Part shown: positions 2 through 60,648 of the stretch, piece by piece
Layout: the number at the start of each line of letters is the position of its first letter
How positions within the stretch are numbered: the first letter of the stretch is position 1
Source: a virus
UHGV virus genome: UHGV-0363627
Strand: one strand, 5' to 3'
Length of the DNA: 64,000 nucleotides
Position numbers and translations under genes: made by a program
Notes under the pieces: generated by a model
Told to the model about the DNA's origin: nothing
Database searches by the model: none
What the model saw: only the letters and a program-made list of their open reading frames with translations

Positions 2-3000
2 GCATTAGATGATGCTGCAACAGCTTTAGGTATTACTACTGAAGGTAAAAATATAAATGATTTAGCAAATGCCATTTATCGTAAATATAATGAAAAAGGA
101 TATATAACAAGAGTTTATAACGATGTAGGATTTCCTATTATTGATAGAGAACTAAATGTAAAACGATTTAGTGATGAAATGACAGAAGAAGAAAAGAAGA
201 TACATGACTTTATGGTTCTTCTACAATTTAATAAACTAAATCAATTAGGTAATATTGTTAATAATACTCTTAGTGTATTGACAGCAGATAAATTTGGTGC
301 TAAACCTAGTTATTATGCTACAGATAGAATATTTAGACAAATAGATGATATATTAGCAAGTGATGATAAATTATATACTGAAAATAAAAAAGGTGAAATA
401 ATTCCAGTGGTTGAAGCTATTTATCCTGGTATTAGTAAAGGTGTAGATAATTTTGCTAAAGCTGATATTAAAAATAGTAGTTATTCTTCTCTTGCTGCTA
501 TGTTGAAATATTCTTCTGTCACTGCATTAAAAGTCGGACAACAAGTATTTGAAACAGCAGAACCTAATTTTGTAGAACTTATATATAATATAGCTAAATA
601 TACAAAAAATGGAAAATTATCAGAGAAACTTTATAATGATTATAAGAAATATCTTGTTAAGAGATTATATGTAAATGATAATAATCCAGCTATTATATAT
701 CCTATTAGTCTAGATGATGATGGTAGTGTATTAATCAAGCAATCCTCTACGGGCAAGCTACATATAGATATTGAAAATGAAATGTCTAGAATTGCTGGTA
801 TTGGAAGTGAATATACTGAAAATACTAATTTTAAAATAGCTGATATTAATAATCCAACTAAAGAAGAAGTATTAGCTTTTGCTAAATTAAGTCCTGCTCA
901 AAAAGTTCTTTATATTAAAGAGAATTTTGATAATATAGGTATATTTGATTTTATAACAGTAAATAAGTTTAATGAATTTACTATTAAACAAAAAGGTTAT
1001 ATATCAAATGAACTTAAACTTAATCAAGGTAATTATACTAATGATTATTTATATGATTTATTTGATTTAGCTTATTTAAGTAGCAATCCAATTATTAGAT
1101 TGGCTGCAATAGACTTGGTAAAATATACTTATGTTGTAGAAGGAAATAATTTTAAAGCTGGTAATATTGCTCGTGCTATTTCTACTTTACCATTAAAACC
1201 TACTAATGTTGGTGGTATGAATATTGGATTTAGTACTAAACTTGCTTTTGATAATTATAGATTTATTGCTCCAACTACAAATGTTTCAGAAAAATTAATT
1301 ATTGGTTTTATTCGTCAAAATTATGATGATTTTCCTGCTAGATTTGTAGATGTAGATAAAATTATAAAGAAAAATGTAAATCATGCTCAAGATATTGAAT
1401 TTAATAATGATGGTTCGATAACTGTTTATACACATGGTATAGCTAATACAAAAGATTTTAATAAATTAGGATTATTGAATAAAGATGAGGCTTATGAAAT
1501 AATAAAAATTAGACATGGTAATACAGCAAAATTATATTATGGAATTAATCATATAGAAAATGTTACATATTATCCATTAAATAAACTTGATGAAATTGAT
1601 ACTAATAAAACAATAGAAGATAGTTCAGTTGCTCGCAACAACGTATATAAATCTTTATTCGATGTTGTATATGGATATAGAAGCGAAAAACTTGCTGAAC
1701 AATATGCTTTATATAAAGATAAATTTGTTAATGCTACAGAAATAACTATAGATGAAACAAATAATATAAGTGAAGTATTAGCTATAGCAAATCATAATTT
1801 CTTTAATAAGTCACAATTAATTCTTCGTAATACTGGATTTACAGGAGATAAATTAATAATAAATAATGCTATAAATGGTAAGAAATATGCTGCTACAAAA
1901 ATTACAGAAGAAGTAGCTAATAGACTTAGAGGAAATACTAGTAATCTTTATCAAGATTATATTGATTTTCTTGATAAATATCCTAATTATAAACCAGAAA
2001 GTGATTACGGTATCTTGCCCGTAGTGGAATATGGCAAAAGATATAGTAGCATTGGAGAACGTGATGCAGCTAGTTTTGCTATTAAACAAACTGTTGCTAT
2101 TGCTAGACAAGAAAGTTTTGGCGGTAATAAATTAGCTGAAAGTATGATGAAAATACTTAATAATGCTAATATCAATTATAAAGATACAAAAGAAATTGCC
2201 AACAATCTTCCTGTTGCTTCTTCGACTGTTGCTAAATTTGTAAAAGCTACTGCTGATAGATTGATATATGATGCTTATCATTTTACTATTGATGAGAATG
2301 GTAATGAATTGAAATTAAATGATGCTAGAGTTATAGAAAGAGTGTTGAAAGATGATAATCTTGAACGTAAGTTTATTACTCTTATTAATACAATCACATC
2401 ATTTAAAGATAGATATTCATTTAGTAATATTAATGTTGAAGGTTATGATGAAGATACAAAAGAAGCGTTAGAAACAATAAAAGAAGCTATTAATAAATTA
2501 AATAATGATACTATTGTGCTTCAAGCTAAAAGAAGTTATTGGAGAGAATTTATTAATAGTAGTACTACTAATCCTAATATTAAATCTGGATTGCAAGATG
2601 CTCTTACATTTTATGGAGATACAGGATTTTTTGATTTGAATATACAAGATATTGCATTTAATCATAATCAATTAGTTCAAGCTGTTGTTGGTGAAAGTCA
2701 AGCTATTATTAAAGAAGGAGAGTTTAGAGGTAAAATTGAAGCTCAACAATTTACTAAAATGCTTTCTGATTTAAAAGCTGAAGCTGCTAAAAATGGTAAA
2801 TCTATTGATTGGAATAAAATTGTTGATGAAAATGGTCGTCTTGTTCAGCCAAATAATAAAGAATGGTTTGAAATGAAAGACAAACTTAATAAAGAATATG
2901 TAAATGCTGTAGATGAAACAAAAGATAAATTTAGTGTTAAAGCATTAAGAGCTAAATTAGAATATGATGCATTTATAGCTGCAACTACAGAGTCACAATT

Positions 3001-14055: not shown

Positions 14056-14469
14056 TTAAAAATTCGACAAATCTAAATTAATATCATTACGAAGAAAATC
14101 AAAATCTTTTGGATGCATATAATTAATTTTATCCAATGCTTCAACATTATCAAAATAATTTTCAAGAGCATTATCATTTATAAATATATAACTACCAAAT
14201 CTAATTGTATCTTCTTCTTCAAATGTTTTAATAAACAACGTAGCTATTTCTAGCTTTGCTTTACATTCTGGACAAACTACACCATTAATAGTATTAATTT
14301 CTTTTGAGCAATCTCTGTTCATTGTATTAAAGAAAGGTGTATAAAACATCGGTTTCTTACATATATAACAAACAGTAGGTGCAGCATTAACACCATAATC
14401 AGGATGATTTTTAAGTACATTGTAGCTTGCCCGTAGGGAATGCCTACCATTATAACTACAATACTTCAT
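14056..14469 (-). CDS. Zn-finger hypothetical protein (137 aa). The N-terminus carries one copy of the dispersed motif, coding HSLRASY.
   Basis: CYICKKP ... CPECK. Motif copy at 14424-14442. Confidence 0.45.
   Translation of the reverse strand: MKYCSYNGRHSLRASYNVLKNHPDYGVNAAPTVCYICKKPMFYTPFFNTMNRDCSKEINTINGVVCPECKAKLEIATLFIKTFEEEDTIRFGSYIFINDNALENYFDNVEALDKINYMHPKDFDFLRNDINLDLSNF
14424..14442 (+). repeat. Motif copy AGCTTGCCCGTAGGGAATG in CDS 14056..14469. Lies between a 7-bp inverted repeat ATTGTAG/CTACAAT (14419-14425 / 14456-14462).
   Basis: Exact consensus. Confidence 0.85.
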
Positions 14470-22792: not shown

Positions 22793-24163
22793 TTATTCTG
22801 AACTACCAAAACTTTGAACATAATATTTTTCATTCTCTGTAATATTTTTTATTTCATGATTTTCATTAATAGGTTTTAGTCTACTACAATCATTTTCTTC
22901 ATTTGTACCTATCATATATAATTTATAGATTTTTATTTTATCAGTATTAAAAGTAAGTTTATTATATCTATATAGAAACTCTTTTATATTATAGCAGTTT
23001 GGCGACATGAATATAATCGCATTACACGTAATTTCTAGACTGTCTGACGAACAATTTTTAATGGATAATACTCTAATATTGTTTGAGTTGAAAGATTGCA
23101 CAGAAAGGCTGGAAATGGCTTGTGCGGCGAAGTTTTTTACTTCTCCTTTTCGATTACCAGTCTTATATCTTATAAAATCTCCAACATTTTCATCATAAAC
23201 AGGTCTAGCTTCAATATCATTATGAAATTCACCACATGATATATTATTTTTATTAAGAGTTTTATAAACTTCTGTTGCAAGAATAGTATTCTTACTAACT
23301 ATTATTACTTTCTTATCTTTTAATTCTCCATTTAATAAATCTATAACTATAGGTATCTTATTTACATTATTATTTACTAAATTATTACGTTCACGAAAAA
23401 TATTATAAGCAGTAGAACATCTTTCTTCTATACTAATAGGATTAAATAAATCATCTATTTGCTTATTAAAAGGTATAGTTACATCAAGATGTTCATTCCA
23501 ACCATTATATTGAGCAATAGATAATCTTACAGCTTCAGCAGATTGACCTGTAGTTTTATCTCCTACTCTAGCACGATTTATATTTTCAAGACTACCAAAT
23601 ATATTAATAGTTTTATTTATATAATCACTATATTTATCATATAATTCTTTTTCATCCTGTCTAGCAAATTGTACTCCAATGTGAATTTCCTCTACGGGCA
23701 AGCTATATTTAGCTGCATATTTGGCAGCATAATCAGCTTGATTTAATATAGGAAAATATTTATAAAGATAAGCACGAGAATCAGGATGAATTTTATCTGT
23801 TGTTATAATAAATAGTCCATATTTAATTATACTATTAATATAATTTGCTTGATACATATCAGTTAATCCAACATAAAAAGCTATATCATAATTATAATGT
23901 ACACCTATTTTTACATAAACAGAAGTAATACAAGCATAATTATTAGAACTTACATTGTTTTCTTTTAAATAATTCACAATACTAGTTCTAACATCATAAT
24001 CTTTAACTACAATAAGAGCTTTTATATTTGGATTTTTCTCTATACTTCTTTTCATTATATATTCTATTAGTATAGCAGGATTATAAGGTTCAAGAAGTAT
24101 ACAACAACCTTTACATTTATTTTCTCTCCATTTATTTGCTATATCAATATATGTTTTATTCAT
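22793..24163 (-). CDS. hypothetical protein, possibly a degenerate helicase-like replication accessory protein (456 aa). Contains a motif copy (SLPVEE) next to a tandem AAKY-AAKY duplication.
   Basis: Long ORF overlapping the polB stop by 8 nt. No clean Walker A. Confidence 0.35.
   Translation of the reverse strand: MNKTYIDIANKWRENKCKGCCILLEPYNPAILIEYIMKRSIEKNPNIKALIVVKDYDVRTSIVNYLKENNVSSNNYACITSVYVKIGVHYNYDIAFYVGLTDMYQANYINSIIKYGLFIITTDKIHPDSRAYLYKYFPILNQADYAAKYAAKYSLPVEEIHIGVQFARQDEKELYDKYSDYINKTINIFGSLENINRARVGDKTTGQSAEAVRLSIAQYNGWNEHLDVTIPFNKQIDDLFNPISIEERCSTAYNIFRERNNLVNNNVNKIPIVIDLLNGELKDKKVIIVSKNTILATEVYKTLNKNNISCGEFHNDIEARPVYDENVGDFIRYKTGNRKGEVKNFAAQAISSLSVQSFNSNNIRVLSIKNCSSDSLEITCNAIIFMSPNCYNIKEFLYRYNKLTFNTDKIKIYKLYMIGTNEENDCSRLKPINENHEIKNITENEKYYVQSFGSSE
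23685..23704 (-). repeat. Motif copy (R) ATTTCCTCTACGGGCAAGCT in CDS 22793..24163
   Basis: Consensus with one extra T. Confidence 0.8.
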
Positions 24164-25178
24164 CTACATCATCAAATAAAGTATTGTACATTCCACTAAA
24201 TTTACGAATTTTACTCTTTCCTTTACCTTTAGGAGTAATACCTAACTTAATCGGGTCTATTAATTTCATACATTCATTATAATAATATTTAAAATCAATA
24301 TTTCTTAAACTAATATCAGTATCATCTAAAGTATTTACAACACAAACTTTAACTCCAGCTGCCATTCTTGACCTACTATTAGTAATATTATGAACTTTTT
24401 CTATTGTATATCCATCATTACTAATATAAAATCTAACATATCGCTGACAAACTATTTTTGTAAGTATTCCATTAACAACTTTTGTTTCTTCAACATGAAA
24501 TTGTCTACCAACATTTTGAGTCATACAAAAATCAAGAATATTAGTAGCTTTTTGAAGAGTTTCCATTATAGGAACTTTATTAATGAAATATTCATAAACA
24601 GCTTTAGCAACAATAGGTTTATCATATCCTTTTTGTAAGTCAATACGATACATATCTGGGTTCATTGCTCCTTTAAATTCTGTCTTTAACTTTCTAACTT
24701 CTTTCTTTTCTTCTCTAAATAAGGCTAAATAATTATTTACATTGCTAGCTATAAGACAATGAAGAATATCACTATCTGCTTCCATTTTAGTTTTTTGTTG
24801 CCATCTAGTTGTTATATCATTAAACAATGCTTTATCTTTTTCATAAACTTTTACCATAATACCATCTGTATTAGCAGATATAATATGTATATTATTAAGT
24901 TCAAGTTCTTCACAAAGCATAAGCATCATTAATTGACCATTTATAGTAACTCGAAGAGTAGCAAGTCTATCATAAAGTGGACTATTTTCATCTCCAAATT
25001 TACCATATATACTATTAATGACAATTTTTAATACAAGTGCAAGCACATCTTTAGGAATACCATCAATTATAGCTTCTTCGCTATGCTTAACAGTAACACG
25101 AGTATCTTTCATCCATTGTATTAGATTACGAAATGCACTCTCAATCATATGAGCAGGAGCAACACTATATGCAGCCAT
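24156..25178 (-). CDS. family-B DNA polymerase, C-terminal exon (palm motifs B and C)
   Basis: KIVINSIYGKFG (motif B, Kx3NSxYG) and ISANTDGIMV (motif C-like). Confidence 0.65.
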   Translation of the reverse strand: MAAYSVAPAHMIESAFRNLIQWMKDTRVTVKHSEEAIIDGIPKDVLALVLKIVINSIYGKFGDENSPLYDRLATLRVTINGQLMMLMLCEELELNNIHIISANTDGIMVKVYEKDKALFNDITTRWQQKTKMEADSDILHCLIASNVNNYLALFREEKKEVRKLKTEFKGAMNPDMYRIDLQKGYDKPIVAKAVYEYFINKVPIMETLQKATNILDFCMTQNVGRQFHVEETKVVNGILTKIVCQRYVRFYISNDGYTIEKVHNITNSRSRMAAGVKVCVVNTLDDTDISLRNIDFKYYYNECMKLIDPIKLGITPKGKGKSKIRKFSGMYNTLFDDVDE

Positions 25179-25510
25179 AATACTAGGATAATACGACGCG
25201 CATTAACATCATAGCTTTCACTATGAACCTGACTATATCTTAATCTTATAACAAGATTTCTCGCACTTCCACATTTATTAATAATGTGTACTCCTTTCGG
25301 ATAGTCGATGAACTTTACTATTATTATATTTCACAATATAATGAGTAGTCTTAGCTGCTGATTGTCCATTATTACGATACTTAGGAATATTATTCCATAT
25401 ATCATCTGTTATTTCTTTTCTACTTTCGTAACTATTGCCATTTAGATTTTCATCTTCTGTTTTAGTAATAACAGCTTTAGGAGTTTCCAGCAATTCACGA
25501 GATTACGACA
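25179..25510 (-). other. Group I-like intron in the polB gene, without an intact homing-endonuclease gene. Boundaries are approximate.
   Basis: 332 nt separate two collinear polB ORFs. It shares five ordered conserved blocks with the helicase intron (AATTGCTGGAAACTC, AGATGAAAATCTAA, GACAATCAGCAGCTAAG, AAAGTTCATCGACTATCC(C)GAAAGG(G)AGTA with GAAA tetraloop hairpin, TAAGATATAGTCAGG). Confidence 0.6.
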
Positions 25511-27552: not shown

Positions 27553-27797
27553 AATATTTTAATATTTGATGGTCTCACATAATAATAAGTTTTAAACATA
27601 GCAGATTGAATAATAAATTTATCACCTTCATAATTATCATTATAAGGGTCAGTCATCCATCTGTCTGTGACATAATTATAAAATCCTATAATAACATATT
27701 CAGTATTGCGATAACCAACAATCATTCCTTTATCTGCAAATTCATTTATATGACATTCTTTACCAAGATTATTTTTTACAAATTCTATATTATCCAT
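27549..27797 (-). CDS. small hypothetical protein (82 aa), paralog of 27313..27552
   Basis: See paralog above. Tandem duplication. Confidence 0.4.
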   Translation of the reverse strand: MDNIEFVKNNLGKECHINEFADKGMIVGYRNTEYVIIGFYNYVTDRWMTDPYNDNYEGDKFIIQSAMFKTYYYVRPSNIKIL

Positions 27798-28767
27798 AAC
27801 ATATATACAATTTATTCTTACATCTACTACAAGCTACATACAATCGTCTTAACAAATCATCTACATTACTATAAGCATTACCATTTTTATCATAACACAT
27901 ATCATTTATATCAACAAATACATTATCATAAGTACTACCTTGGCTTCGATGACTTGTTAAAGCAAATCCATAATCTATATCTCTTGAAATAATAATCTTA
28001 CCTGTATAATCAACTACATTTTCAAGCAAAAGATACTTTCTCTTAAACTCATAATATTTCTTCCAACAACTAGAACGAGTTTTAATATCAGCATTTTTTG
28101 CTTTATTAATAAGATAATTTACCTCATCACAATATGTTTTCAATGTATAAGCATCAAAATGATTTATAACAAATAAAGGCTTAGTAACAGCTCCACCATG
28201 TATAGCTTGAAACCTTATCATAAAACCTTTAAAATTATAAGTTTCATCTTCATAATTAACTATGTCTTTAATAATATATTCTTCACTATTATTAATAATA
28301 ATATCATTAAAATCATCAACAATAGTTGTATAAGACATTATCAAATCATTTCTATTAATTATAGTCTTATCAGCATTTCGAACAATAGTTTGACGAATAA
28401 CTTTATTCCAATAAGATACAGCATTATTAGTATATGCTACCATACGATACAAATCAACATTTGTTGCAAAATTTTCATCAGAAAATCTATTCATAACAAC
28501 ATTTGTAAATTCTTGTCGATTATATACTTTATATCCAACATCACCATTTATATTTTCTCTGTTTTTATAAATATAACTAAGAAAATTAAATGTTCTATGT
28601 TTTATATCATCACGTAGCATTGCCAACAATTCAGTAACAGGATTATCTTTTTCTTGTCGTACAATTTCTTTAAGTTCGCTAGTCTTATAAGCATTTTTAA
28701 AAGCAGTACTAACTTTCTCATTTACAGGACTAAGCTGATTTGCATCCAATAATCTTATAACTTTCAT
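27790..28767 (-). CDS. Dda/RecD-like SF1 helicase, C-terminal exon
   Basis: C-terminal SF1 motif TSHRSQGSTYDNVFV and ...YVACSRCKNKLYI. Confidence 0.6.
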   Translation of the reverse strand: MKVIRLLDANQLSPVNEKVSTAFKNAYKTSELKEIVRQEKDNPVTELLAMLRDDIKHRTFNFLSYIYKNRENINGDVGYKVYNRQEFTNVVMNRFSDENFATNVDLYRMVAYTNNAVSYWNKVIRQTIVRNADKTIINRNDLIMSYTTIVDDFNDIIINNSEEYIIKDIVNYEDETYNFKGFMIRFQAIHGGAVTKPLFVINHFDAYTLKTYCDEVNYLINKAKNADIKTRSSCWKKYYEFKRKYLLLENVVDYTGKIIISRDIDYGFALTSHRSQGSTYDNVFVDINDMCYDKNGNAYSNVDDLLRRLYVACSRCKNKLYICYG

Positions 28768-29964
28768 TATAAGCCTGACTATATCTTAGTTGCATTATCA
28801 ATATCTATATAAGGTAAAAATTGTTCTTTATATTTTTTATCAAGTTTAAAAAAATCAACAAAAACATATCCTTTATGACTCTTTTTTGTACCGTTTATAA
28901 CTTGACTGACATTTTTAGGTGTAAAGCCATTATCTCTAAGGTCTTGTGAACCATAAAATATTCTAAATTCATGTTCATCATTATTTGTTATAGCTAAAGA
29001 AATACCAATATAAATTCTATTATTAGTTTTACCTGGCATATATTCATAATTTTTATCAGTATCATAATTATTTTTATAAATCCATTGATAGCCTTTATGA
29101 ATATTTCTTTTTCCTGAACAACAATCAGCTATACATCCAGCGTAAAAATGCCCAATTTCTTCCGCTTCTGTAGCTGATGCCCATTCTTTAACAATATTAC
29201 CTAAAATATCTATTTGTAAAACAGGTTTTGAATTAGGATTAAGTTCATATTTATTTCCATAATTACCATTTTCTTTACCAATAAAATGTTTGTTATAAAA
29301 ATAATTTTCATTTCCTTTTTTCCCAATACAAGTATCACCTTCATTTCCATTAACTAAACAACCACCATTTTCAATACATTTGTATTTAGCTATTAATTCT
29401 TTTTCTATAGTTATACTATCTTCAATAGATATATCTATTTTATTTATAACTACTTTAACTTTAGAAACATCTTTAACTTTATTTTTCCAAAGATTATTTC
29501 TATTATTAAAATTAAATGCTCTACTAATAGTACCTTGACCTACATAAAATGGTAGTTCTTCATCATTATAATAATGAAGATAAACACAAATTCTTTCTAA
29601 ATCTTTAAAAGAATAATCATACTTACTAGGAATATCTTTAACGCTATTAATATTCCTTTTCTTTTTGTTAATTGTAAAATTAAATGTAACCATATATTTA
29701 TAATTTAAAAGTTCATTACAAATATATGGCGAAAATTGATAATTTGCAACTTTCTCCGTTTCGATTTTTAAAAAATCTACTCCCTTTCGGGATAGTCGAT
29801 GAACTTTGTTCATTTCATAATTCACATTATTACTTAGAACCTTAGCTGCTGATTGTCATATATTATTAGTTTTTCAAGCATTCACACTTAGATTTTCATC
29901 TTATGTTGTAGCACTAATAACTTCACGAGTTTCCAGCAATTAGAAGAATTTTATATCGGCAATG
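28768..29964 (-). other. Group I-like intron carrying the GIY-YIG homing-endonuclease gene, splitting the Dda-like helicase gene. Boundaries are approximate.
   Basis: The helicase N-terminal ORF ends at TAG 29965-29967 and the C-terminal ORF resumes at 28767. The intervening 1.2 kb holds the HEG and the same conserved blocks as the polB intron. Confidence 0.6.
28779..29825 (-). CDS. GIY-YIG homing endonuclease encoded inside the helicase intron
   Basis: VYLHYYNDEELPFYVGQG (GIY-10aa-YIG spacing) plus downstream conserved R and N. C-terminal region resembles I-TevI-type DNA-binding modules. The 5' end of the ORF overlaps conserved intron core sequence. Confidence 0.7.
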   Translation of the reverse strand: MNYEMNKVHRLSRKGVDFLKIETEKVANYQFSPYICNELLNYKYMVTFNFTINKKKRNINSVKDIPSKYDYSFKDLERICVYLHYYNDEELPFYVGQGTISRAFNFNNRNNLWKNKVKDVSKVKVVINKIDISIEDSITIEKELIAKYKCIENGGCLVNGNEGDTCIGKKGNENYFYNKHFIGKENGNYGNKYELNPNSKPVLQIDILGNIVKEWASATEAEEIGHFYAGCIADCCSGKRNIHKGYQWIYKNNYDTDKNYEYMPGKTNNRIYIGISLAITNNDEHEFRIFYGSQDLRDNGFTPKNVSQVINGTKKSHKGYVFVDFFKLDKKYKEQFLPYIDIDNATKI

Positions 29965-30453
29965 CTATTCACCGATGTAAAGAACTTTAATTTTTCTATC
30001 AGCGCAATATTTATTAATATAAGTAACTAATGCTTTATTAAGCATACTAGCTTCATCAACAATAAGAACTTTTACATTAGCAACTTTAGGCGGACCAATA
30101 GGTTTAAAAGCAGGCAAATTAGGGTCAAAATCTTCAATATTAGTATCAATTCTAAACCCAAAAGCAGCTTGTATAGTAGTTACTTTTCTACCTCCTGTAG
30201 CATTAGACAATATACGACAAGCTTTATGTGTTGGAGCAGCAAGATAAAACATACTTGAACCATATTTACTATGCTCAATTATATAATTTGTAACAAAAGT
30301 TTTACCACACCCTGCTGCGCCAGATAATGCTTGAACATTTTTAAGTTTATTAAAATCTTCAGCTATAAAACTTATTATATTATCGACAGCTTTTTCTTGA
30401 CTAGGAGTAAAATTAGGTTTAATAGCTTTTTGGTCTAAACTAATCATATTCAA
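29965..30453 (-). CDS. Dda/RecD-like SF1 helicase, N-terminal exon (Walker A)
   Basis: LSGAAGCGKTF Walker A, LIVDEASM Walker B/DEAD-like. Confidence 0.65.
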   Translation of the reverse strand: MNMISLDQKAIKPNFTPSQEKAVDNIISFIAEDFNKLKNVQALSGAAGCGKTFVTNYIIEHSKYGSSMFYLAAPTHKACRILSNATGGRKVTTIQAAFGFRIDTNIEDFDPNLPAFKPIGPPKVANVKVLIVDEASMLNKALVTYINKYCADRKIKVLYIGE

Positions 30454-34076: not shown

Positions 34077-34393
34077 TAATCCTCTACGGGCAAGCTACGA
34101 TTGACTTCTTTAGCAACAAATTCATCTAATAAAGCAGCAGTTCTATTACTAAATTCATCAAAAGCAGCAGTAAAACATTCAAGAAATTGTTTATTACTAT
34201 AACGATATTCTCGTTTAAGTCCATCTTTAATAATAATAAATCTATCTGCCAATAGAGATACATTTGCATCTTCACCAAAACATCTTTTCAGATATTCAAT
34301 AGTAACACCTCTAACATTAGCATTATTTCTAACAACATTAGACAAAGCTAATACATGAGCTGGAGTTTCAGGTTTTTCTTTTTTCTGTTTCAT
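34076..34393 (-). CDS. hypothetical protein (105 aa). The C-terminus is formed by a motif copy (…SLPVED-stop).
   Basis: ORF. Motif at 34079-34096 supplies the last 6 codons. Confidence 0.45.
   Translation of the reverse strand: MKQKKEKPETPAHVLALSNVVRNNANVRGVTIEYLKRCFGEDANVSLLADRFIIIKDGLKREYRYSNKQFLECFTAAFDEFSNRTAALLDEFVAKEVNRSLPVED
34079..34096 (-). repeat. Motif copy (R) ATCCTCTACGGGCAAGCT forming the last codons of CDS 34076..34393
   Basis: Exact consensus. Confidence 0.85.
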
Positions 34394-34517
34394 AACTAAT
34401 TAATTTAAAAGATTTACAACTACAAATATAATAATATTCTCACATATAACAATTATTATTACAATTATTATTTACAGCAATATAGTATATTATTATAACA
34501 GATGATGTTATAACTAT

Positions 34518-34573
34518 TGCTACAAATAAAGAAACCGCATAAGCTGTAACAAATGAAACAACTGTATGCGGTT
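34518..34573 (-). terminator. rho-independent terminator (stem AACCGCATA / TATGCGGTT) ending the long non-coding transcript downstream of gene 35018..35590
   Basis: 9-bp stem 34533-34541/34565-34573, then UCUUUAUUUGUAG on the minus strand. Confidence 0.55.
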
Positions 34574-34708
34574 ATAAAAATAAATATAATTGATATGGAA
34601 AATGTAATGTCAAGAGAGTTATTATTGAAAGTCTTATAGATAAATCAACAAAGGTAATAAACGAATAATAAATGGTATCATAATAAAGATAATAAAGGAC
34701 TAATAAAA

Positions 34709-34756
34709 GGTATAACAAAAGGTATAGCAAAAGATATAGCAAAAGATATAGCAAAT
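34709..34756. repeat. Four tandem 12-mers (GGTATAACAAAA GGTATAGCAAAA GATATAGCAAAA GATATAGCAAAT) in a non-coding locus
   Basis: Direct tandem repetition read from sequence. Produces the spurious LYLLLY ORF on the minus strand. Confidence 0.8.
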
Positions 34757-35017
34757 GAAGATATTGAAGATGAGATTATAACTAAAAGTTATAGGCATAT
34801 AACGAAAAGTTATAATGATGATGCAAGAGTAATTCGAGCAGAAGATATAATAACAATTAGAATAATGAGAGTTAGAGTTGTAAGAGAAGCAATTAGAGTA
34901 AGAATAATAGTAGTAAGAATTATAGCAGCAAGATATAGAAGTTTATTAGGAAGAGGATTAGGAAGTGGAGCAGTAGGAATAGCTCCAGGTACTCATGCTC
35001 ATTCTCCTCTTCTATTA

Positions 35018-35590
35018 TTAATCAGCTTTAATTTTACCACTAGCTGTTATTAATTTATCTAAATCTTTTTCTTTATACATATCATTATAATCTTGTATAA
35101 ATTCTTCTCTTTTACCATAAAATAGTTCATTATGATTAATAACAACTTTATGAATATCGGTTGTAAGACGAATTATATTATCTCTTTGCAATTTATAAAG
35201 TGCATCTCTAACAAATCTCGTATTTTTACAAATATGTTCATAATCATTTTTATTAATGACAATAACATTACTGTTCCATTTAAGATTTCTAATAAGAACT
35301 TTAATAGTTTTATGAACATATTTATCAGCTGCATCATCTATATCATTCAATCTATCACTAATTTGTTTATATGATACACCTATAGGTTTAGATTCTATAC
35401 CTCTTAATAGTCTATGACCAAATTGTATATCTTGTTCGACATCTTTATAATTATATTGAACATTAAAAGGAGTAGGGAGTATAGTATTTGAACTATTAAC
35501 AATAGAATTAATATATCTACTTTCTGTATTAGCAAGAGCAATTTTATTAGCTTTAGTAAGTTTTTTAGTATCGAATTTGAATGTTGGCAT
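35018..35590 (-). CDS. hypothetical protein (190 aa), paralog A of a duplicated cassette
   Basis: Aligns with 35891..36481 (NLKWNSNVIVINKNDYEHI / NIKYNSNVIVISDDDIDAI etc.). Confidence 0.5.
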   Translation of the reverse strand: MPTFKFDTKKLTKANKIALANTESRYINSIVNSSNTILPTPFNVQYNYKDVEQDIQFGHRLLRGIESKPIGVSYKQISDRLNDIDDAADKYVHKTIKVLIRNLKWNSNVIVINKNDYEHICKNTRFVRDALYKLQRDNIIRLTTDIHKVVINHNELFYGKREEFIQDYNDMYKEKDLDKLITASGKIKAD

Positions 35591-35830
35591 AGTTGTATAG
35601 TTATTAGTTATTAATTATAGTTATCAGTGCAAATATAGGAATAAAATGTATAATAGCTATACAAATTATAGAGAAAATTATAAAGTGTATAGTAAATATA
35701 CATTTTGCTGCATGAGCCAGATACAAAAATGTATAGTAACTATACAAAACATAATATCGTAAATCGCTGATACAGAGGCTTGTAGCTGCTTTACACCAAA
35801 ATCTATATAGATATATAGAATATTTTATTA

Positions 35831-35888
35831 TCAGCTATATCATCAACAACATGACAACTCTTATCACCAACTCCAGCAACGACAACAT
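35831..35888. repeat. 58-nt element, copy 1 (TCAGCTATATCATCAACAACATGACAACTCTTATCACCAACTCCAGCAACGACAACAT), about 240 nt upstream of paralog gene A
   Basis: 57/58 identical to 36711-36768. Confidence 0.85.
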
Positions 35889-35890
35889 CA

Positions 35891-36481
35891 TCATTTTATA
35901 ACTATTCTACCATATTTATTTGTCTCAATATCTTTATTTTCATATAACTTCTTATAATGTCTCATAAATTCATCATATCTACCATAAAGAATATATTTAG
36001 GATTAATAATAAATGTATCTTTTTTAGTAGTTCTAGCTAAAACTTCATAAGAACATAATTGTCGAATATTACGGTCAAAAACTTGTTTATTTTTAGTAAT
36101 AGCATCTATATCATCATCACTAATAACAATAACATTACTGTTATATTTAATATTACGAGCAATAAATGCAACAATATTAGTAGCTATTTCTGATTTAATA
36201 TCAGATAATACTCCAAATATATTAGGTGAAACAATACAATATTTACCTCTTTCATAAGTAATACAATCAATATTAAATGTACTACCATCTGCTAGAATAA
36301 ATGCTTTAGTTTTAACATATTCTTCAAGATTAATATCAAAAGGCATAGGTTTAATAAGTTTTACCCATTTAGTAGCATCATCAAGTTCAGAAGAAACATA
36401 ATTAGCAACAGCTTGTTTTTCTGTTTTAGTAAGTCCTTTAATAGCTGGATTACTAGAAAAATTAAATATTGGTTTTTTCAT
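35891..36481 (-). CDS. hypothetical protein (196 aa), paralog B of the duplicated cassette
   Basis: See paralog A. Both copies have a near-identical 58-nt element about 240 nt upstream. Confidence 0.5.
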   Translation of the reverse strand: MKKPIFNFSSNPAIKGLTKTEKQAVANYVSSELDDATKWVKLIKPMPFDINLEEYVKTKAFILADGSTFNIDCITYERGKYCIVSPNIFGVLSDIKSEIATNIVAFIARNIKYNSNVIVISDDDIDAITKNKQVFDRNIRQLCSYEVLARTTKKDTFIINPKYILYGRYDEFMRHYKKLYENKDIETNKYGRIVIK

Positions 36482-36710
36482 AATTGAATACTTTAGAGTG
36501 ATTAAATAAATGATTTTGCGAATATATCATCTGTATTCGATATTTACAAGTAATAATAGGTATAAAATTCTATATGTACTCAAAAGTATATAGTTTGTAT
36601 GAGCCAGTTATAAAGTTGATACTTTGGAGTATCAATTTTTTATAGCTAAAATGCTGATAATCAGACAGATAAATGAAAAAATTGCATCTTATAGATATAT
36701 AGTAATATCA

Positions 36711-36768
36711 TCAGTTATATCATCAACAACATGACAACTCTTATCACCAACTCCAGCAACGACAACAT
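36711..36768. repeat. 58-nt element, copy 2, about 230 nt upstream of paralog gene B
   Basis: 57/58 identical to 35831-35888. Confidence 0.85.
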
Positions 36769-36982
36769 TATCTTTTATGTCATTAACTCGACAACCGCCA
36801 ACGCCACCAACCACGTCACCGCAACGCTTAGCACCAACTCCAACAACGCTGCAAGCAATTTTATGTTATTATTTCGAGTTGCACTACTATCATCAGCATT
36901 GTTTATGTTATTATTATGAGAAGCCACAGTAAAACTATCTAAAAGAAAAGGCAGAGTAACCGTAGTCACTCCGCCAACTTCT

Positions 36983-37678
36983 TTAGAATGGAACTTCTTC
37001 TGTTGTAGATTCTGCACTTGCTAACAATGCTGCACGATTTGCTTTAGCTGCACGAGCTGATTTCATAGCCTCACGCATCATCTCTCTTGTATCAGCAATA
37101 GCATCACGATATGCTTGAACAAGAAGTTCATCAGTCGGTTGCTCAACACCTACAACATGATAAATATATCTGTCATACTCTTTCACGCCGTACTTATTCT
37201 CCTTACGAGTAAAAGGATTCTGAGCATCAACACCAGCTGGAACAAATTCAGCAAGAATATTCATAGTCAAACCAGCAATATATTGGTCACCAAAGCCAAC
37301 TTCGATAGCATCAGCAATATACTTGATAAATCTACCAAAGAACTGATTACCTCTCATTGCCAATTCAAGCTGCCAATACGGCATCTGAATAGTACGAATA
37401 TAAGCTGGTTGATAAACACCATTAGCATCTTTAGCAACGCCAATAATAGGTTTGTCCAAAGTCATGAACAAATTCCAATATTCCTTGCCAGTTTTGCCAT
37501 TACGTTTGTCAAGCTGAACAGATGCAATAGTAACAGTAAGGTCTTTGTTAGCTTGATTGCCTTTCAAAGCTGCTACAATTTCATCGTAAGGCTTTGCCGG
37601 CACAGGAGTAACATTATTAGCTACTGCATTGTTAGCTGCATTACCATTCACATTCTGAGTTGTTTTATTTGTTGCCAT
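36983..37678 (-). CDS. putative single-stranded DNA-binding protein (SSB-like; acidic C-terminal tip …TTEEVPF)
   Basis: 231 aa. N/Q-rich N-terminus, beta-rich middle, C-terminal acidic tail ending in PF. GC content locally elevated. Confidence 0.4.
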   Translation of the reverse strand: MATNKTTQNVNGNAANNAVANNVTPVPAKPYDEIVAALKGNQANKDLTVTIASVQLDKRNGKTGKEYWNLFMTLDKPIIGVAKDANGVYQPAYIRTIQMPYWQLELAMRGNQFFGRFIKYIADAIEVGFGDQYIAGLTMNILAEFVPAGVDAQNPFTRKENKYGVKEYDRYIYHVVGVEQPTDELLVQAYRDAIADTREMMREAMKSARAAKANRAALLASAESTTEEVPF

Positions 37679-37805
37679 AATAATTAAGTATTAAATTGTT
37701 AATAATAAATTATACCGACACACATCATCGGCAAAATCTTTTATGTCATTAATATGAGATGTCACATTTTAGTTAAGCTGGTATAACACCAGCCCAACCA
37801 TTAAT

Positions 37806-38069
37806 TTAATCTGTGACATAAAGCACATTAGTAAGAAAAGCACAACCACTAACTATAGCACACAGCATCGCATTAACACTATCTACATGATAATAATTAA
37901 GATAAGCAATCGCAAATACCACAGCTACTATTAGCAAGAAGATAGTAGCCAAAGACTTCAAGATAATCTTTTTCATGATTAATAATTTAAAAAGGATAAA
38001 TATCGTCATCATCAATGACATTATAACTCTCAGTTGTGGTATTTTCATCTTCGATGATTTTCTCACCAC
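37806..38069 (-). CDS. small membrane protein (87 aa)
   Basis: Hydrophobic helices. First gene of the minus block next to the switch region. Confidence 0.4.
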   Translation of the reverse strand: MVRKSSKMKIPQLRVIMSLMMTIFILFKLLIMKKIILKSLATIFLLIVAVVFAIAYLNYYHVDSVNAMLCAIVSGCAFLTNVLYVTD

Positions 38070-38238
38070 ATATAGCTTCTATTAAAGCGTCTGTAAAATT
38101 ATTTTCTATATATTCCATGATTATCAGTTTTAGCACAATCAACACCGACTGCAAAATCTTTTATGTTATTACCATGAGAATAATCAACTTTGTTATTTTC
38201 TCTGTCTTTAGCATACGGGGGTATCTAATTCAATTTTA

Positions 38239-38252: not shown

Positions 38253-38789
38253 ATCATACATAGCTTCATTTTTATAACTATAAATTCTAAATTCAACTAT
38301 AAATTCCACTACAAACTCTACTACATTTTCATCATTCAAATCATTATAATTTTTACTTTATTCTTCACCTGCTTTATTACTTGAATTATTTTTAATATCC
38401 TTATCATAATCACCTATTATATAAGAGGATGTTCAATCACTTTTAGAAGGAGGTGAACTATATATAGCCTCACCTTCACAACTATAAACTCAATATAATT
38501 TATTACTTCATCTCTAGTCTTATCTTTATTTCTTTAATTTTTATACCTATTTTTATTATCTCTGTTTCATCATCTTCATTATTTTACTTTATAATTTTTA
38601 TCATCTTTATTTTCTATCATCTTTATTTTCTATTATATTATTTTCTTATTTCTTATTTCATTCTTTTTTATTATCTATAAATATAGGGGAGGGGGCTGTT
38701 CAATCATCATCTTTAATAGAGGGTTTATTATATTCACCTTCTCTTTTATATTTATCTTTATTATTTGCTATCTCTTTGTTGTTTATTGT

Positions 38790-38806
38790 ATCTTGCCCGT
38801 AGAGGA
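38790..38806 (+). repeat. Motif copy ATCTTGCCCGTAGAGGA in the divergent switch region. Loop of a perfect 8-bp hairpin TATTGTAT/ATACAATA (38784-38791 / 38811-38818).
   Basis: Consensus core. Confidence 0.8.
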
Positions 38807-39774: not shown

Positions 39775-39792
39775 ATTCCCTACGGGCAAGCT
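39775..39792 (-). repeat. Motif copy (R) ATTCCCTACGGGCAAGCT immediately after the stop of CDS 39219..39773
   Basis: Exact consensus. Confidence 0.85.
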
Positions 39793-39805
39793 ATAATTAG
39801 ATAAT

Positions 39806-60425: not shown

Positions 60426-60444
60426 ATTCCTCTACGGGCAAGCT
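60426..60444 (-). repeat. Motif copy (R) ATTCCTCTACGGGCAAGCT forming the 24-nt loop of a perfect 13-bp hairpin (AATGATAAGTCAT 60411-60423 / ATGACTTATCATT 60448-60460), intergenic
   Basis: Exact consensus. Confidence 0.9.
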
Positions 60445-60648
60445 ACAATGACTTATCATTATATTAGTATTAATCAATTAAATATTACAATTATGAATTG
60501 GAATGTATTTTGTACATAAGTTATTAAATTATTAACAAGAATTGCTGAAGGTGGTGGAACAGGTGGTGGAGTTTCTTCTGATGAATTTAATAAACTTAAA
60601 CAACAAGTTAGTGATATACAATCTGATGTAACAACTGTTGAAACTAAA

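Follow-up and report, generated by a model that had tools for sequence, protein, structure and literature searches.

The 64,000-nt stretch of the virus genome UHGV-0363627 analysed here (the window) carries a 59-nt element twice, once upstream of each of two adjacent genes, A and B, whose products resemble replication initiators of the RepL type. We think it probable that this repeat is a recombination junction, left when a second RepL-like module was joined behind a first one, rather than a special regulator or small RNA (sRNA). The phage itself is, by its sequence, a crAss-like member of the Crudevirinae (Crassvirales, Intestiviridae), and its structural genes are 75-77% identical to those of Delmidovirus and Carjivirus. 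The crAss-like phages are among the most abundant human gut viruses. The 59-nt repeat in itself is an ordinary consequence of phage mosaicism: the finding is of a familiar kind, and useful for crAss-like biology.

A hypervariable slot behind the SSB-like gene

The repeated element, ATCAG[C/T]TATATCATCAACAACATGACAACTCTTATCACCAACTCCAGCAACGACAACAT, had been described in the initial annotation as 58 nt long with 57 matching positions. It extends to 59 nt, of which 58 are identical, and weaker similarity lengthens the pair to 86 nt at 87% identity. The 64 kb hold these two copies and no others, the expected number being zero. They lie 240 nt (gene A) and 229 nt (gene B) upstream of the start codons, close to the distance of about 240 nt first reported for both. 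Genes A and B had been called paralogs, and this is borne out by 26% amino-acid identity over 188 aa (E 2e-15). With genes so little alike, the repeat does not belong to a duplication that is young throughout, the circumstance under which its near-identity would simply reflect its age. The locus is inside the first 3.5 kb of a leftward operon that begins in a strand-switch region at ~38.3-39 kb, and every gene there (A, B and the SSB-like gene) is on the minus strand (Table 1). The SSB-like label, too, is backed by homology, namely 41% identity (tblastn) to the annotated gp02 'putative ssb' of Carjivirus communis.

A megablast search with 34400-37800 against phage records gave no match, and a search of IMG/VR returned one relative only. 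Relatives were gathered in three ways, by DNA pattern, by SSB homology and as contigs encoding homologs, and are numbered here from L001 on. The 59-mer is present once in about 18 related genomes; a 39-nt core of it stands exactly once, behind the SSB-like gene, in L001, L003-L009 and L011-L017. Through the SSB-like gene and the leader that follows it, these genomes are 93-99% identical to the window. They then diverge directly after a TATA palindrome, according to the type of gene that comes next, which is C in L001 and L003, C' in L004 and L006, A in L005, and B in L007-L009 and L011-L017. On the right, the slot reaches as far as a stop codon, either that of the RepL-like gene or that of a companion gene. 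Since the element is found in single copy after the SSB-like gene and is followed by divergence that depends on gene type, it belongs to the backbone at the left border of a hypervariable slot. The number of cassettes does vary among relatives: copy 1, the inner copy of the window, is missing from the single-module genomes, and it is mostly missing from L031 despite the same order of B then A.

The companion gene deserves a remark of its own. In single-module relatives it follows the RepL-like gene after 5-13 nt and is variable (L007 4099-4377; L004 4798-5310; L006 downstream of 7207); the example in L004 encodes 170 aa beginning MKKVNSNKLKELTEEQ. It is missing in the window lineage, and only its first ~100 nt are kept in L031.

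Junctions at short homologies

The boundaries of the modules can be read by comparing native and stacked arrangements. Where B stands alone it ends in ...GTTATAAAATGA followed by TGATATTATG, including the start codon of the companion gene (L007-L014); the flank in L017 is ...AAAATGATGATGTTATG, and the sequence after B there is TGATGTTATG. Type C' ends natively in ...TAA followed by AACGATGATGTTATG, and AAAA(T/C)GATGAT(A/G)TTATG is common to B and C' in their native 3' flanks. At the junction the leader reads ACATAAAAGATGATGTTGTC, with the element starting ...ACATAAAAGAT(G/A)ATGTTGTCGTTGCT, and the window junction reads GTTATAAAATGATGATGTTGTCGTTGCT. The inner copies of the window and of L010 both start TATAAAATGATGATG(T/C)TGTCGTTGCT, and the inner copy does not have the M-box (described below) that precedes the native one. 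At its right-hand end each copy follows the spelling of its own gene type (...GATGATATTACTATATATCTATAAGATGC with B; ...GATAATAAAATATTCTATATATCTATATAGATTTTGG with A or C), which indicates assembly from two donor genomes.

Stacking recurs in other forms. L010 carries C' and then B, and its element copies differ at 5 of 39 positions, each resembling the allele usual with its downstream gene; hence homogenisation of the copies is not general. In L031, B precedes A as in the window, but the junction is another one. The native spacer of B is still there, followed by ~100 nt of the companion gene, and it is within this remnant, at a second short homology (...CTTGTTGATGATATAGCTGAT), that the element is joined on. 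The inner copy of L031 has accordingly no GATAAG box (see below) and retains the TATA palindrome. L033 has the order element-B-element-B-element-A with an 880-nt period. The two-module arrangement is present in at least four independent assemblies. Exact B and A proteins occur together on long contigs from several samples (L030, L031, L032 and L033), which led us to reject an assembly artefact as the source of the B-A tandem. No recombinase or integrase domain was found by Pfam and neighbour scans in ten open reading frames (ORFs) at 25.5-32.3 kb and in the neighbours at 33.2-38.1 kb, and no reverse transcriptase domain was found there either. That there are several junction designs, all at short homologies, and no recombinase in the scanned neighbours argues for homology-driven recombination over a site-specific system.

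These observations suggest the following scenario. The slot downstream of the SSB-like gene holds an exchangeable module made of palindromic repeats, a host-type -7-like box and a RepL-like gene. Before the slot lies a conserved leader, in which the SSB terminator is followed by three tandem M-boxes, two GATAAG boxes and the TATA palindrome; the 59-mer is its last stretch. One module and one 59-mer are the usual state, and the window lineage has B and A modules in tandem. The join was probably a crossover within ~13 nt of near-identity, ATAAAA(T)GATGATGTT, present both in the intercistronic spacer behind gene B and at the 5' end of the leader element. It would have taken away the companion gene of B, brought leader sequence and the A module in after B, and left 59-95 nt of the leader in duplicate. 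The two copies would then be near-identical because both derive from the well-conserved backbone of closely related genomes. Once in place, such direct repeats could serve as substrates for further unequal exchange, and the B-B-A array of L033 is possibly the product expected of an exchange of this kind.

At its 5' edge (36769-36780 and the region 35889-35900) the element has a 12-nt block with two alleles, GTTGTCGTTGCT and GATAGAGATAGT, which differ at 7 of 12 positions. The former is found in the window, L004, L006 and most B-type genomes, the latter in L001, L005, L010 and L031. Both are hexamer doublets and neither is tied to the type of the downstream gene.

Genes A and B as probable RepL-like initiators

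Neither A nor B has a direct match in Pfam or PHROGs. Gene B is nonetheless 30% identical to gp43 of C. communis, annotated as 'plasmid replication initiation protein RepL' (tblastn, E 2e-6), and a profile built from A, B and close homologs gathers 175 protein clusters, mostly of ~170-230 aa. Pfam RepL is matched by 17 of 58 members of this family. When ten members were scanned singly, three passed the RepL cut-off of 20.3 bits (P0011 with 28.1, P0006 with 22.4 and P0012 with 20.6); the match spans the winged-helix region, profile positions ~46-143 of 164. Four members match the N-terminal origin-binding domain of phage protein O. The AlphaFold2 model of the B protein (pLDDT 89.8) has a predicted winged-helix fold in its C-terminal half, of the DNA-binding kind looked for in a RepL-like family, and its best fold matches in the PDB are winged-helix domains (CodY C-terminal domain, GntR, MarR, HlyU and ORC2 C-terminal domain), all of them weak (E >= 0.1). 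Given the match to gp43, the RepL and phage O matches of homologs and the winged-helix model, we read A and B as probable RepL-like winged-helix replication initiators.

The succession of an SSB gene and a RepL-like gene is retained further away, in L020 (cr110_1) and L023-L028. In cr110_1 the next sizeable gene after SSB is a clear member of the family (hhalign probability 99.8%). The C. communis genes gp06 and gp08, near its SSB, are not RepL-like family members.

The conserved leader

Between 36750 and 36899 the GC content is 0.45-0.50, against ~0.25 for the genome, and C far exceeds G on the plus strand (skew -0.42 to -0.56). The GC-elevated extension described in the initial annotation is therefore real, but it does not adjoin the SSB-like gene directly, a terminator hairpin lying between the two. 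It holds a partial tandem copy of the element with an 87-nt period (repeat family D7).

Three kinds of motif stand out in this leader. The M-box, CTCrwrwTAATrACATAAAA, occurs exactly five times in the window, always on the minus strand and within 36773-38178, where 0.24 occurrences are expected. The leader has a tandem array of three, the last of them adjoining the native 59-mer, and this triplet is retained in L023, L025 and L026 with a spelling specific to each lineage. The segment 37679-37751, which comprises an M-box and the 5' untranslated region of the SSB-like gene, is 96-100% identical in all relatives. Bacteroides promoters have the -7 consensus TAnnTTTG; by eye the M-box has no fit to it, and we discarded a host promoter. 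M-boxes might be phage-specific promoters or factor-binding sites. The GATAAG box, an imperfect palindrome, forms the centre of the 59-mer and is present in three copies where 0.02 are expected. Boxes of this type also follow the SSB gene in cr110_1 (TGATAAGACTT, twice) and in C. communis (CTGATAAGACTTGTC and CTGATAAGTCTTATC), where the copy GATAAGTCTTATC is palindromic around its central base. The CTATATATCTATATAG palindrome, finally, recurs in L023, in L026 and in Delmidovirus cr110_1, where it precedes the RepL-like gene.

The terminator hairpin of the SSB-like gene is present as well in L015, L017, L023, L025, L026 and cr110_1. L023, L025 and L026 share the order terminator, three M-boxes, two GATAAG boxes, TATA-rich palindrome (less clear in L025), module-specific repeats and gene. 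Identity of the non-coding leader to relatives is 91-95%, where third codon positions of the SSB-like gene have 87-90%, and the leader appears to be under constraint. It may be a regulatory or origin-proximal region shared by all types of module.

Repeats specific to each module

Upstream of each gene type lies its own set of repeated candidate sites, and the sets vary with the divergence of the proteins. The TATAG...CTATA-like boxes noted earlier are real and take the form, before gene A, of three 17-bp palindromes TGTATAGTAACTATACA, a repeat type that also precedes the A ortholog of L005. Gene B has ACTCnAAAGTAT motifs and the TTGATACT/AGTATCAA palindrome. Type C (L001) has a 31-nt inverted repeat, and type C' (L006) three GTCTGTAAAATACA motifs spaced by 39 and 45 nt, so that the spacing is similar in the A and C' types (39 to 45 nt). 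Other repeats again precede the B-like genes of L015 and L017, which are more divergent (63-65% identity). Located ~40-45 nt before each start codon is a -7 box of the Bacteroides type, with the sequence TAnnTTTG or one close to it. That each gene type has its own repeats is the pattern expected of initiator-plus-cognate-site modules. We suggest that A and B bind their own upstream repeats, which would make the two units candidates for modules of this sort.

One shared box, ATGAGCCAG (CTGGCTCAT on the minus strand), was correctly spotted in the initial annotation: there are exactly two in the window, each ~120 nt upstream of a start codon. It sits between the type-specific repeats, in regions where the modules are otherwise unrelated in sequence. 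Near matches are CTGGCTCAA in L005 and CTGGCTCGT in L007 and L012.

Table 1. Positions of the features discussed, in window coordinates.
Feature	Position	Strand	Remarks
59-mer copy 2	36710..36768	-	native position, last part of conserved leader; holds GATAAG box 2 (36736-36753)
59-mer copy 1	35830..35888	-	duplicated inner copy; holds GATAAG box 3 (35856-35873)
Junction zone ATAAAATGATGATGTT	35884..35899	-	native B 3' spacer has nearly the same sequence as the 5' end of the leader element
Gene A	35018..35590	-	putative RepL-like initiator paralog, 190 aa; same family profile as B
Gene B	35891..36481	-	putative RepL-like winged-helix initiator, 196 aa
Three tandem M-boxes	36901-36920, 36859-36878, 36773-36792	-	promoter-like; G/T-rich sequence after each
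M-box	37739..37758	-	80 nt upstream of SSB-like start codon
M-box	38159..38178	-	upstream of first small gene of leftward operon
GATAAG box 1 GAGTTGGTGCTAAGCGTT	36823..36840	-	older tandem unit of leader; paired with box 2 in all relatives
Degenerate TATA palindrome CTATATATCTATAAG	36687..36701	-	B-type right end of element; identical spelling in all B-type relatives (L007-L016)
TATA palindrome CTATATATCTATATAG	35803..35818		right end of element, A/C-type spelling; kept in L031
Module A upstream region	35591..35802	-	three TGTATAGTAACTATACA palindromes, CTGGCTCAT box 35712-35720, -7 box TATATTTG 35630-35637
TGTATAGTAACTATACA 17-bp palindromes	35647-35663, 35686-35702, 35730-35746	-	spacing 39, 44 nt
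Module B upstream region	36482..36686	-	ACTCnAAAGTAT repeats, TTGATACT/AGTATCAA palindrome, CTGGCTCAT box 36599-36607, -7-like box 36519-36526
ACTCnAAAGTAT motifs (three)	36488-36499, 36578-36589, 36619-36631	-	before gene B
TTGATACT/AGTATCAA palindrome	36616-36635	-	before gene B
SSB-like gene	36983..37678	-	conserved backbone gene upstream of slot; 93-99% nucleotide identity in relatives
Intrinsic terminator after SSB-like gene	36940..36975 (hairpin 36950-36975)	-	11-bp stem and T tract; terminator scan
Right flank of slot	34394..35017		conserved non-coding, ~620 nt, reversed strand skew (purine-rich on plus strand)

Alternatives to a recombination junction

Some of our observations weigh against the interpretation of the repeat as a junction between RepL-like modules. 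The contig L033 begins inside its array and may be an assembly loop. The inner copies of the window and L010 start at the same nucleotide, as a site-preferring process would also predict, and their junctions could stem from one ancestral event followed by replacement of the upstream gene, in which case they are not independent. The two window copies share every polymorphic allele, and gene conversion between them is possible. As for the genes, neither A nor B matches Pfam RepL (PF05732) at E <= 0.1, and their assignment is transitive.

The initial annotation favoured selection as the cause of the near-identity, the 59-mer being for example an operator or sRNA; on this view both paralogs would need the same control. 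The leader is indeed somewhat more conserved than third codon positions of the SSB-like gene, and the GATAAG palindrome that recurs after SSB in cr110_1 and C. communis means that the native copy could be a protein-binding site. Yet, neither strand of either copy folds better than shuffled sequences (z -0.15 to -0.99) and no Rfam family covers the 59-mer, for which reasons we dropped a structured sRNA. Most relatives do with a single copy, L031 has B then A and no GATAAG box before A, the inner copy lost the M-box that precedes the native one, and the copies of L010 are not identical. Common control of the two genes thus seems to us an unlikely reason for the repeat. Translation of the element fared no better. 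The minus-strand frame through it (...VVVAGVGDKSCHVVDDI...) has no ATG and needs a +1 shift from gene B at AAA-TGA. Compared with copy 1 of the window, L001 has an indel of 2 nt in the TATA stretch that comes directly after the 59-mer; the frame is thereby shifted and stops elsewhere, giving 82 aa in L001 as against 41 aa in the window. Changes in the frame among relatives are mainly non-synonymous. We likewise set aside the antisense ORF through the element (MTTLITNSS...), which is of low complexity, variable in length and without a proper start.

Could A and B instead have diverged in place after an ancient tandem duplication, with gene conversion keeping the 59-mers alike and single-module relatives arising by deletion between the repeats? 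Such deletions are expected in a recombination-proficient phage, and the alleles shared by the window copies include the GTTGTCGTTGCT block, for which L001, L005 and L010 have the alternative GATAGAGATAGT. But in single-module genomes the native 3' flank of B is a companion gene, not a copy of the element, the right halves of the elements match the spelling of their own gene type elsewhere, which points to two donors, and L031 and L010 are joined otherwise. We give this history little credence. Gene conversion, which had been put forward as a cause of the near-identity, is not needed to explain it, though it may have acted in the window lineage; the differences between the copies of L010 speak against it there. 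Equally little speaks, if not slightly less, for a site-specific cassette system akin to integrons, in which the element would be an attC-like site for the insertion and excision of RepL modules. Stacking does recur (the window type, L010 and possibly L033), the inner copies of the window and L010 share their left boundary, and module B is flanked by direct repeats. Against this stand the three junction designs, with L031 joined at another position than the window and L010 and not at a single crossover point, the short sequence homologies at all of them, the lack of hairpin-forming inverted repeats and of an attC-like fold in the element, the absence of integrase or recombinase domains in the flanking genes scanned, and the promoter-like box of each module, unlike integron cassettes. 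We rejected an integron-like system on the grounds of fold, recombinase and crossover point.

A last alternative, a diversity-generating retroelement with the repeat as its template/variable pair, was suggested by an adjoining match to Rfam RT-9 (RF03080) at 36897-36976 on the minus strand (32.6 bits, E 0.0017 in 501 nt). The alleles of the 12-nt block, moreover, differ at all five adenines of GATAGAGATAGT. However, the match is below the gathering threshold of 46.1 bits, has no counterpart in nine related loci at E <= 0.1, and corresponds to the SSB terminator hairpin (its 5' half) followed by an M-box-like tail UAAUAACAUAAACAAUG. The genes scanned include no reverse transcriptase, the 59-mer copies differ at one position only where adenine-specific differences would be expected, the allele block differs at two guanines as well, and long imperfect repeat pairs are otherwise lacking in the window. 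We judge the RT-9 match to be due to chance, and the retron or retroelement idea almost certainly wrong.

Relation to known systems

According to Botstein's modular theory, as it is usually told, phage modules are exchanged at conserved boundary sequences. In lambdoid and other tailed phages the initiator and its cognate iterons are swapped as a unit, the repeats of lambda O being inside the gene. This mosaicism and the PeSL elements discussed next are the concepts nearest to the locus described here, which resembles the former in three ways: the initiator gene travels with its own candidate binding-site repeats, very different alleles (26% identity) fill one slot in genomes that are otherwise 93-99% identical, and the exchange points are in conserved flanks. 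Unlike in lambda, the repeats are upstream of the gene, the initiator is RepL-like, and modules may also be stacked with a duplicated boundary sequence.

The PeSL elements of T4-type phages, which consist of an early promoter and a stem-loop terminator, are mobile regulatory cassettes found in many copies per genome (Arbiol et al. 2010, PMC2839356; Comeau et al. 2014, PMC4122927). As with PeSLs, non-core genes of a hyperplastic region have short conserved intergenic sequences on either side, recombination between these gives insertions, deletions and replacements among close relatives, and direct repeats could release circles. In the window, module B is bounded by two copies of the element, and relatives differ in that modules are present, absent or replaced. 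In other respects the likeness fails. The 59-mer has no stem-loop or significant fold, with the terminator and M-boxes upstream of the native copy only, there are two copies in 64 kb and not many dispersed ones, and the junctions are at 10-16-nt homologies with other sequences, not only between copies of the element.

A further parallel is in Carjivirus communis, the prototypic crAssphage, which has two distantly related repL genes (24.6% identity) of variable copy number, with an origin predicted beside one of them (PMC10983915, preprint of 2024). The window also has two distantly related RepL-like genes whose copy number varies among close relatives, and B is homologous to gp43. The two repL genes of C. 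communis are at opposite ends of the block of replication genes, whereas those of the window are adjacent and follow the SSB gene. Adjacent stacked modules, a boundary repeat or module swapping are not described in that preprint (PMC10983915). Like the RepL of phage P1 and of Firmicute plasmids (PF05732), the window proteins belong to a winged-helix family of putative initiators whose match covers the winged-helix region, although they are themselves below the Pfam threshold. In P1, oriL is inside repL; here the candidate sites are upstream of the gene.

A possible replication origin

In T7 and T4, transcription activates or primes initiation at replication origins. To our knowledge, neither the replication origins nor the persistence strategy of crAss-like phages have been resolved. 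We tentatively propose, while thinking it rather doubtful, that the leader and the module-specific repeats form the replication origin of Crudevirinae. Transcription from the M-boxes into the stretch with a strong excess of G over C would prime or activate initiation, and the RepL-like module would set its specificity. Stacking would then provide two replicon specificities, possibly a lytic and a plasmid-like one. If this were true, it would be the modules that determine incompatibility or immunity where crAss-like strains reside together. The early non-coding regions of phi14:2, which are highly transcribed (bioRxiv 10.1101/2020.03.07.982082), are only a loose precedent, since g004 of this phage is not an SSB homolog.

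Whatever the fate of this proposal, in one Crudevirinae lineage a probable RepL-like initiator and its candidate binding sites make up a hot-swappable unit, sometimes stacked, behind a conserved leader. This offers candidate cis-elements of an origin or promoter (M-boxes, GATAAG boxes, the TATA palindrome and type-specific repeats) and a possible route for strains to differ in replicon specificity. It has also a practical side, as short-read assemblies break at the 59-nt repeat, with L034, L041 and similar short contigs as the result, and the typing of strains can be misled by it.

Other features of the region

The right flank of the slot (34394-35017) is conserved but rich in indels among relatives. 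It holds a 12-nt tandem repeat, AAAAGATATAGC, in ~4 copies (34705-34755) and TATAAC-N5-GTTATA palindromes. C. communis has a comparable non-coding stretch, likewise rich in repeats, after SSB and gp04 (L018 1713-2374). This flank is a candidate for an origin or a non-coding transcript.

Further along the minus strand, at 27790-30453, a helicase is apparently split. Its N-terminal part (29965..30453) matches AAA_19, AAA_30 and PIF1, its C-terminal part (27790..28767) matches UvrD_C_2, and between the halves lies an I-HmuI-like NUMOD homing-endonuclease ORF (28779..29825). The flanks of this insertion recur at 71-81% identity near 25201-25495, beside ORF 24156..25178, and the two places may be related intron-like or endonuclease insertions.

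Finally, a GC-rich motif of 16 nt, CYCTACGGGCAAGMTA, is dispersed over 23 sites on both strands of the window, where none is expected; examples are 745-760 (+), 14423-14438 (-), 34082-34097 (+), 38789-38804 (-), 39778-39793 (+) and 60430-60445 (+). Its copies are located at gene boundaries and also within ORFs, and the one at 34082 is directed toward the non-coding region of reversed skew.

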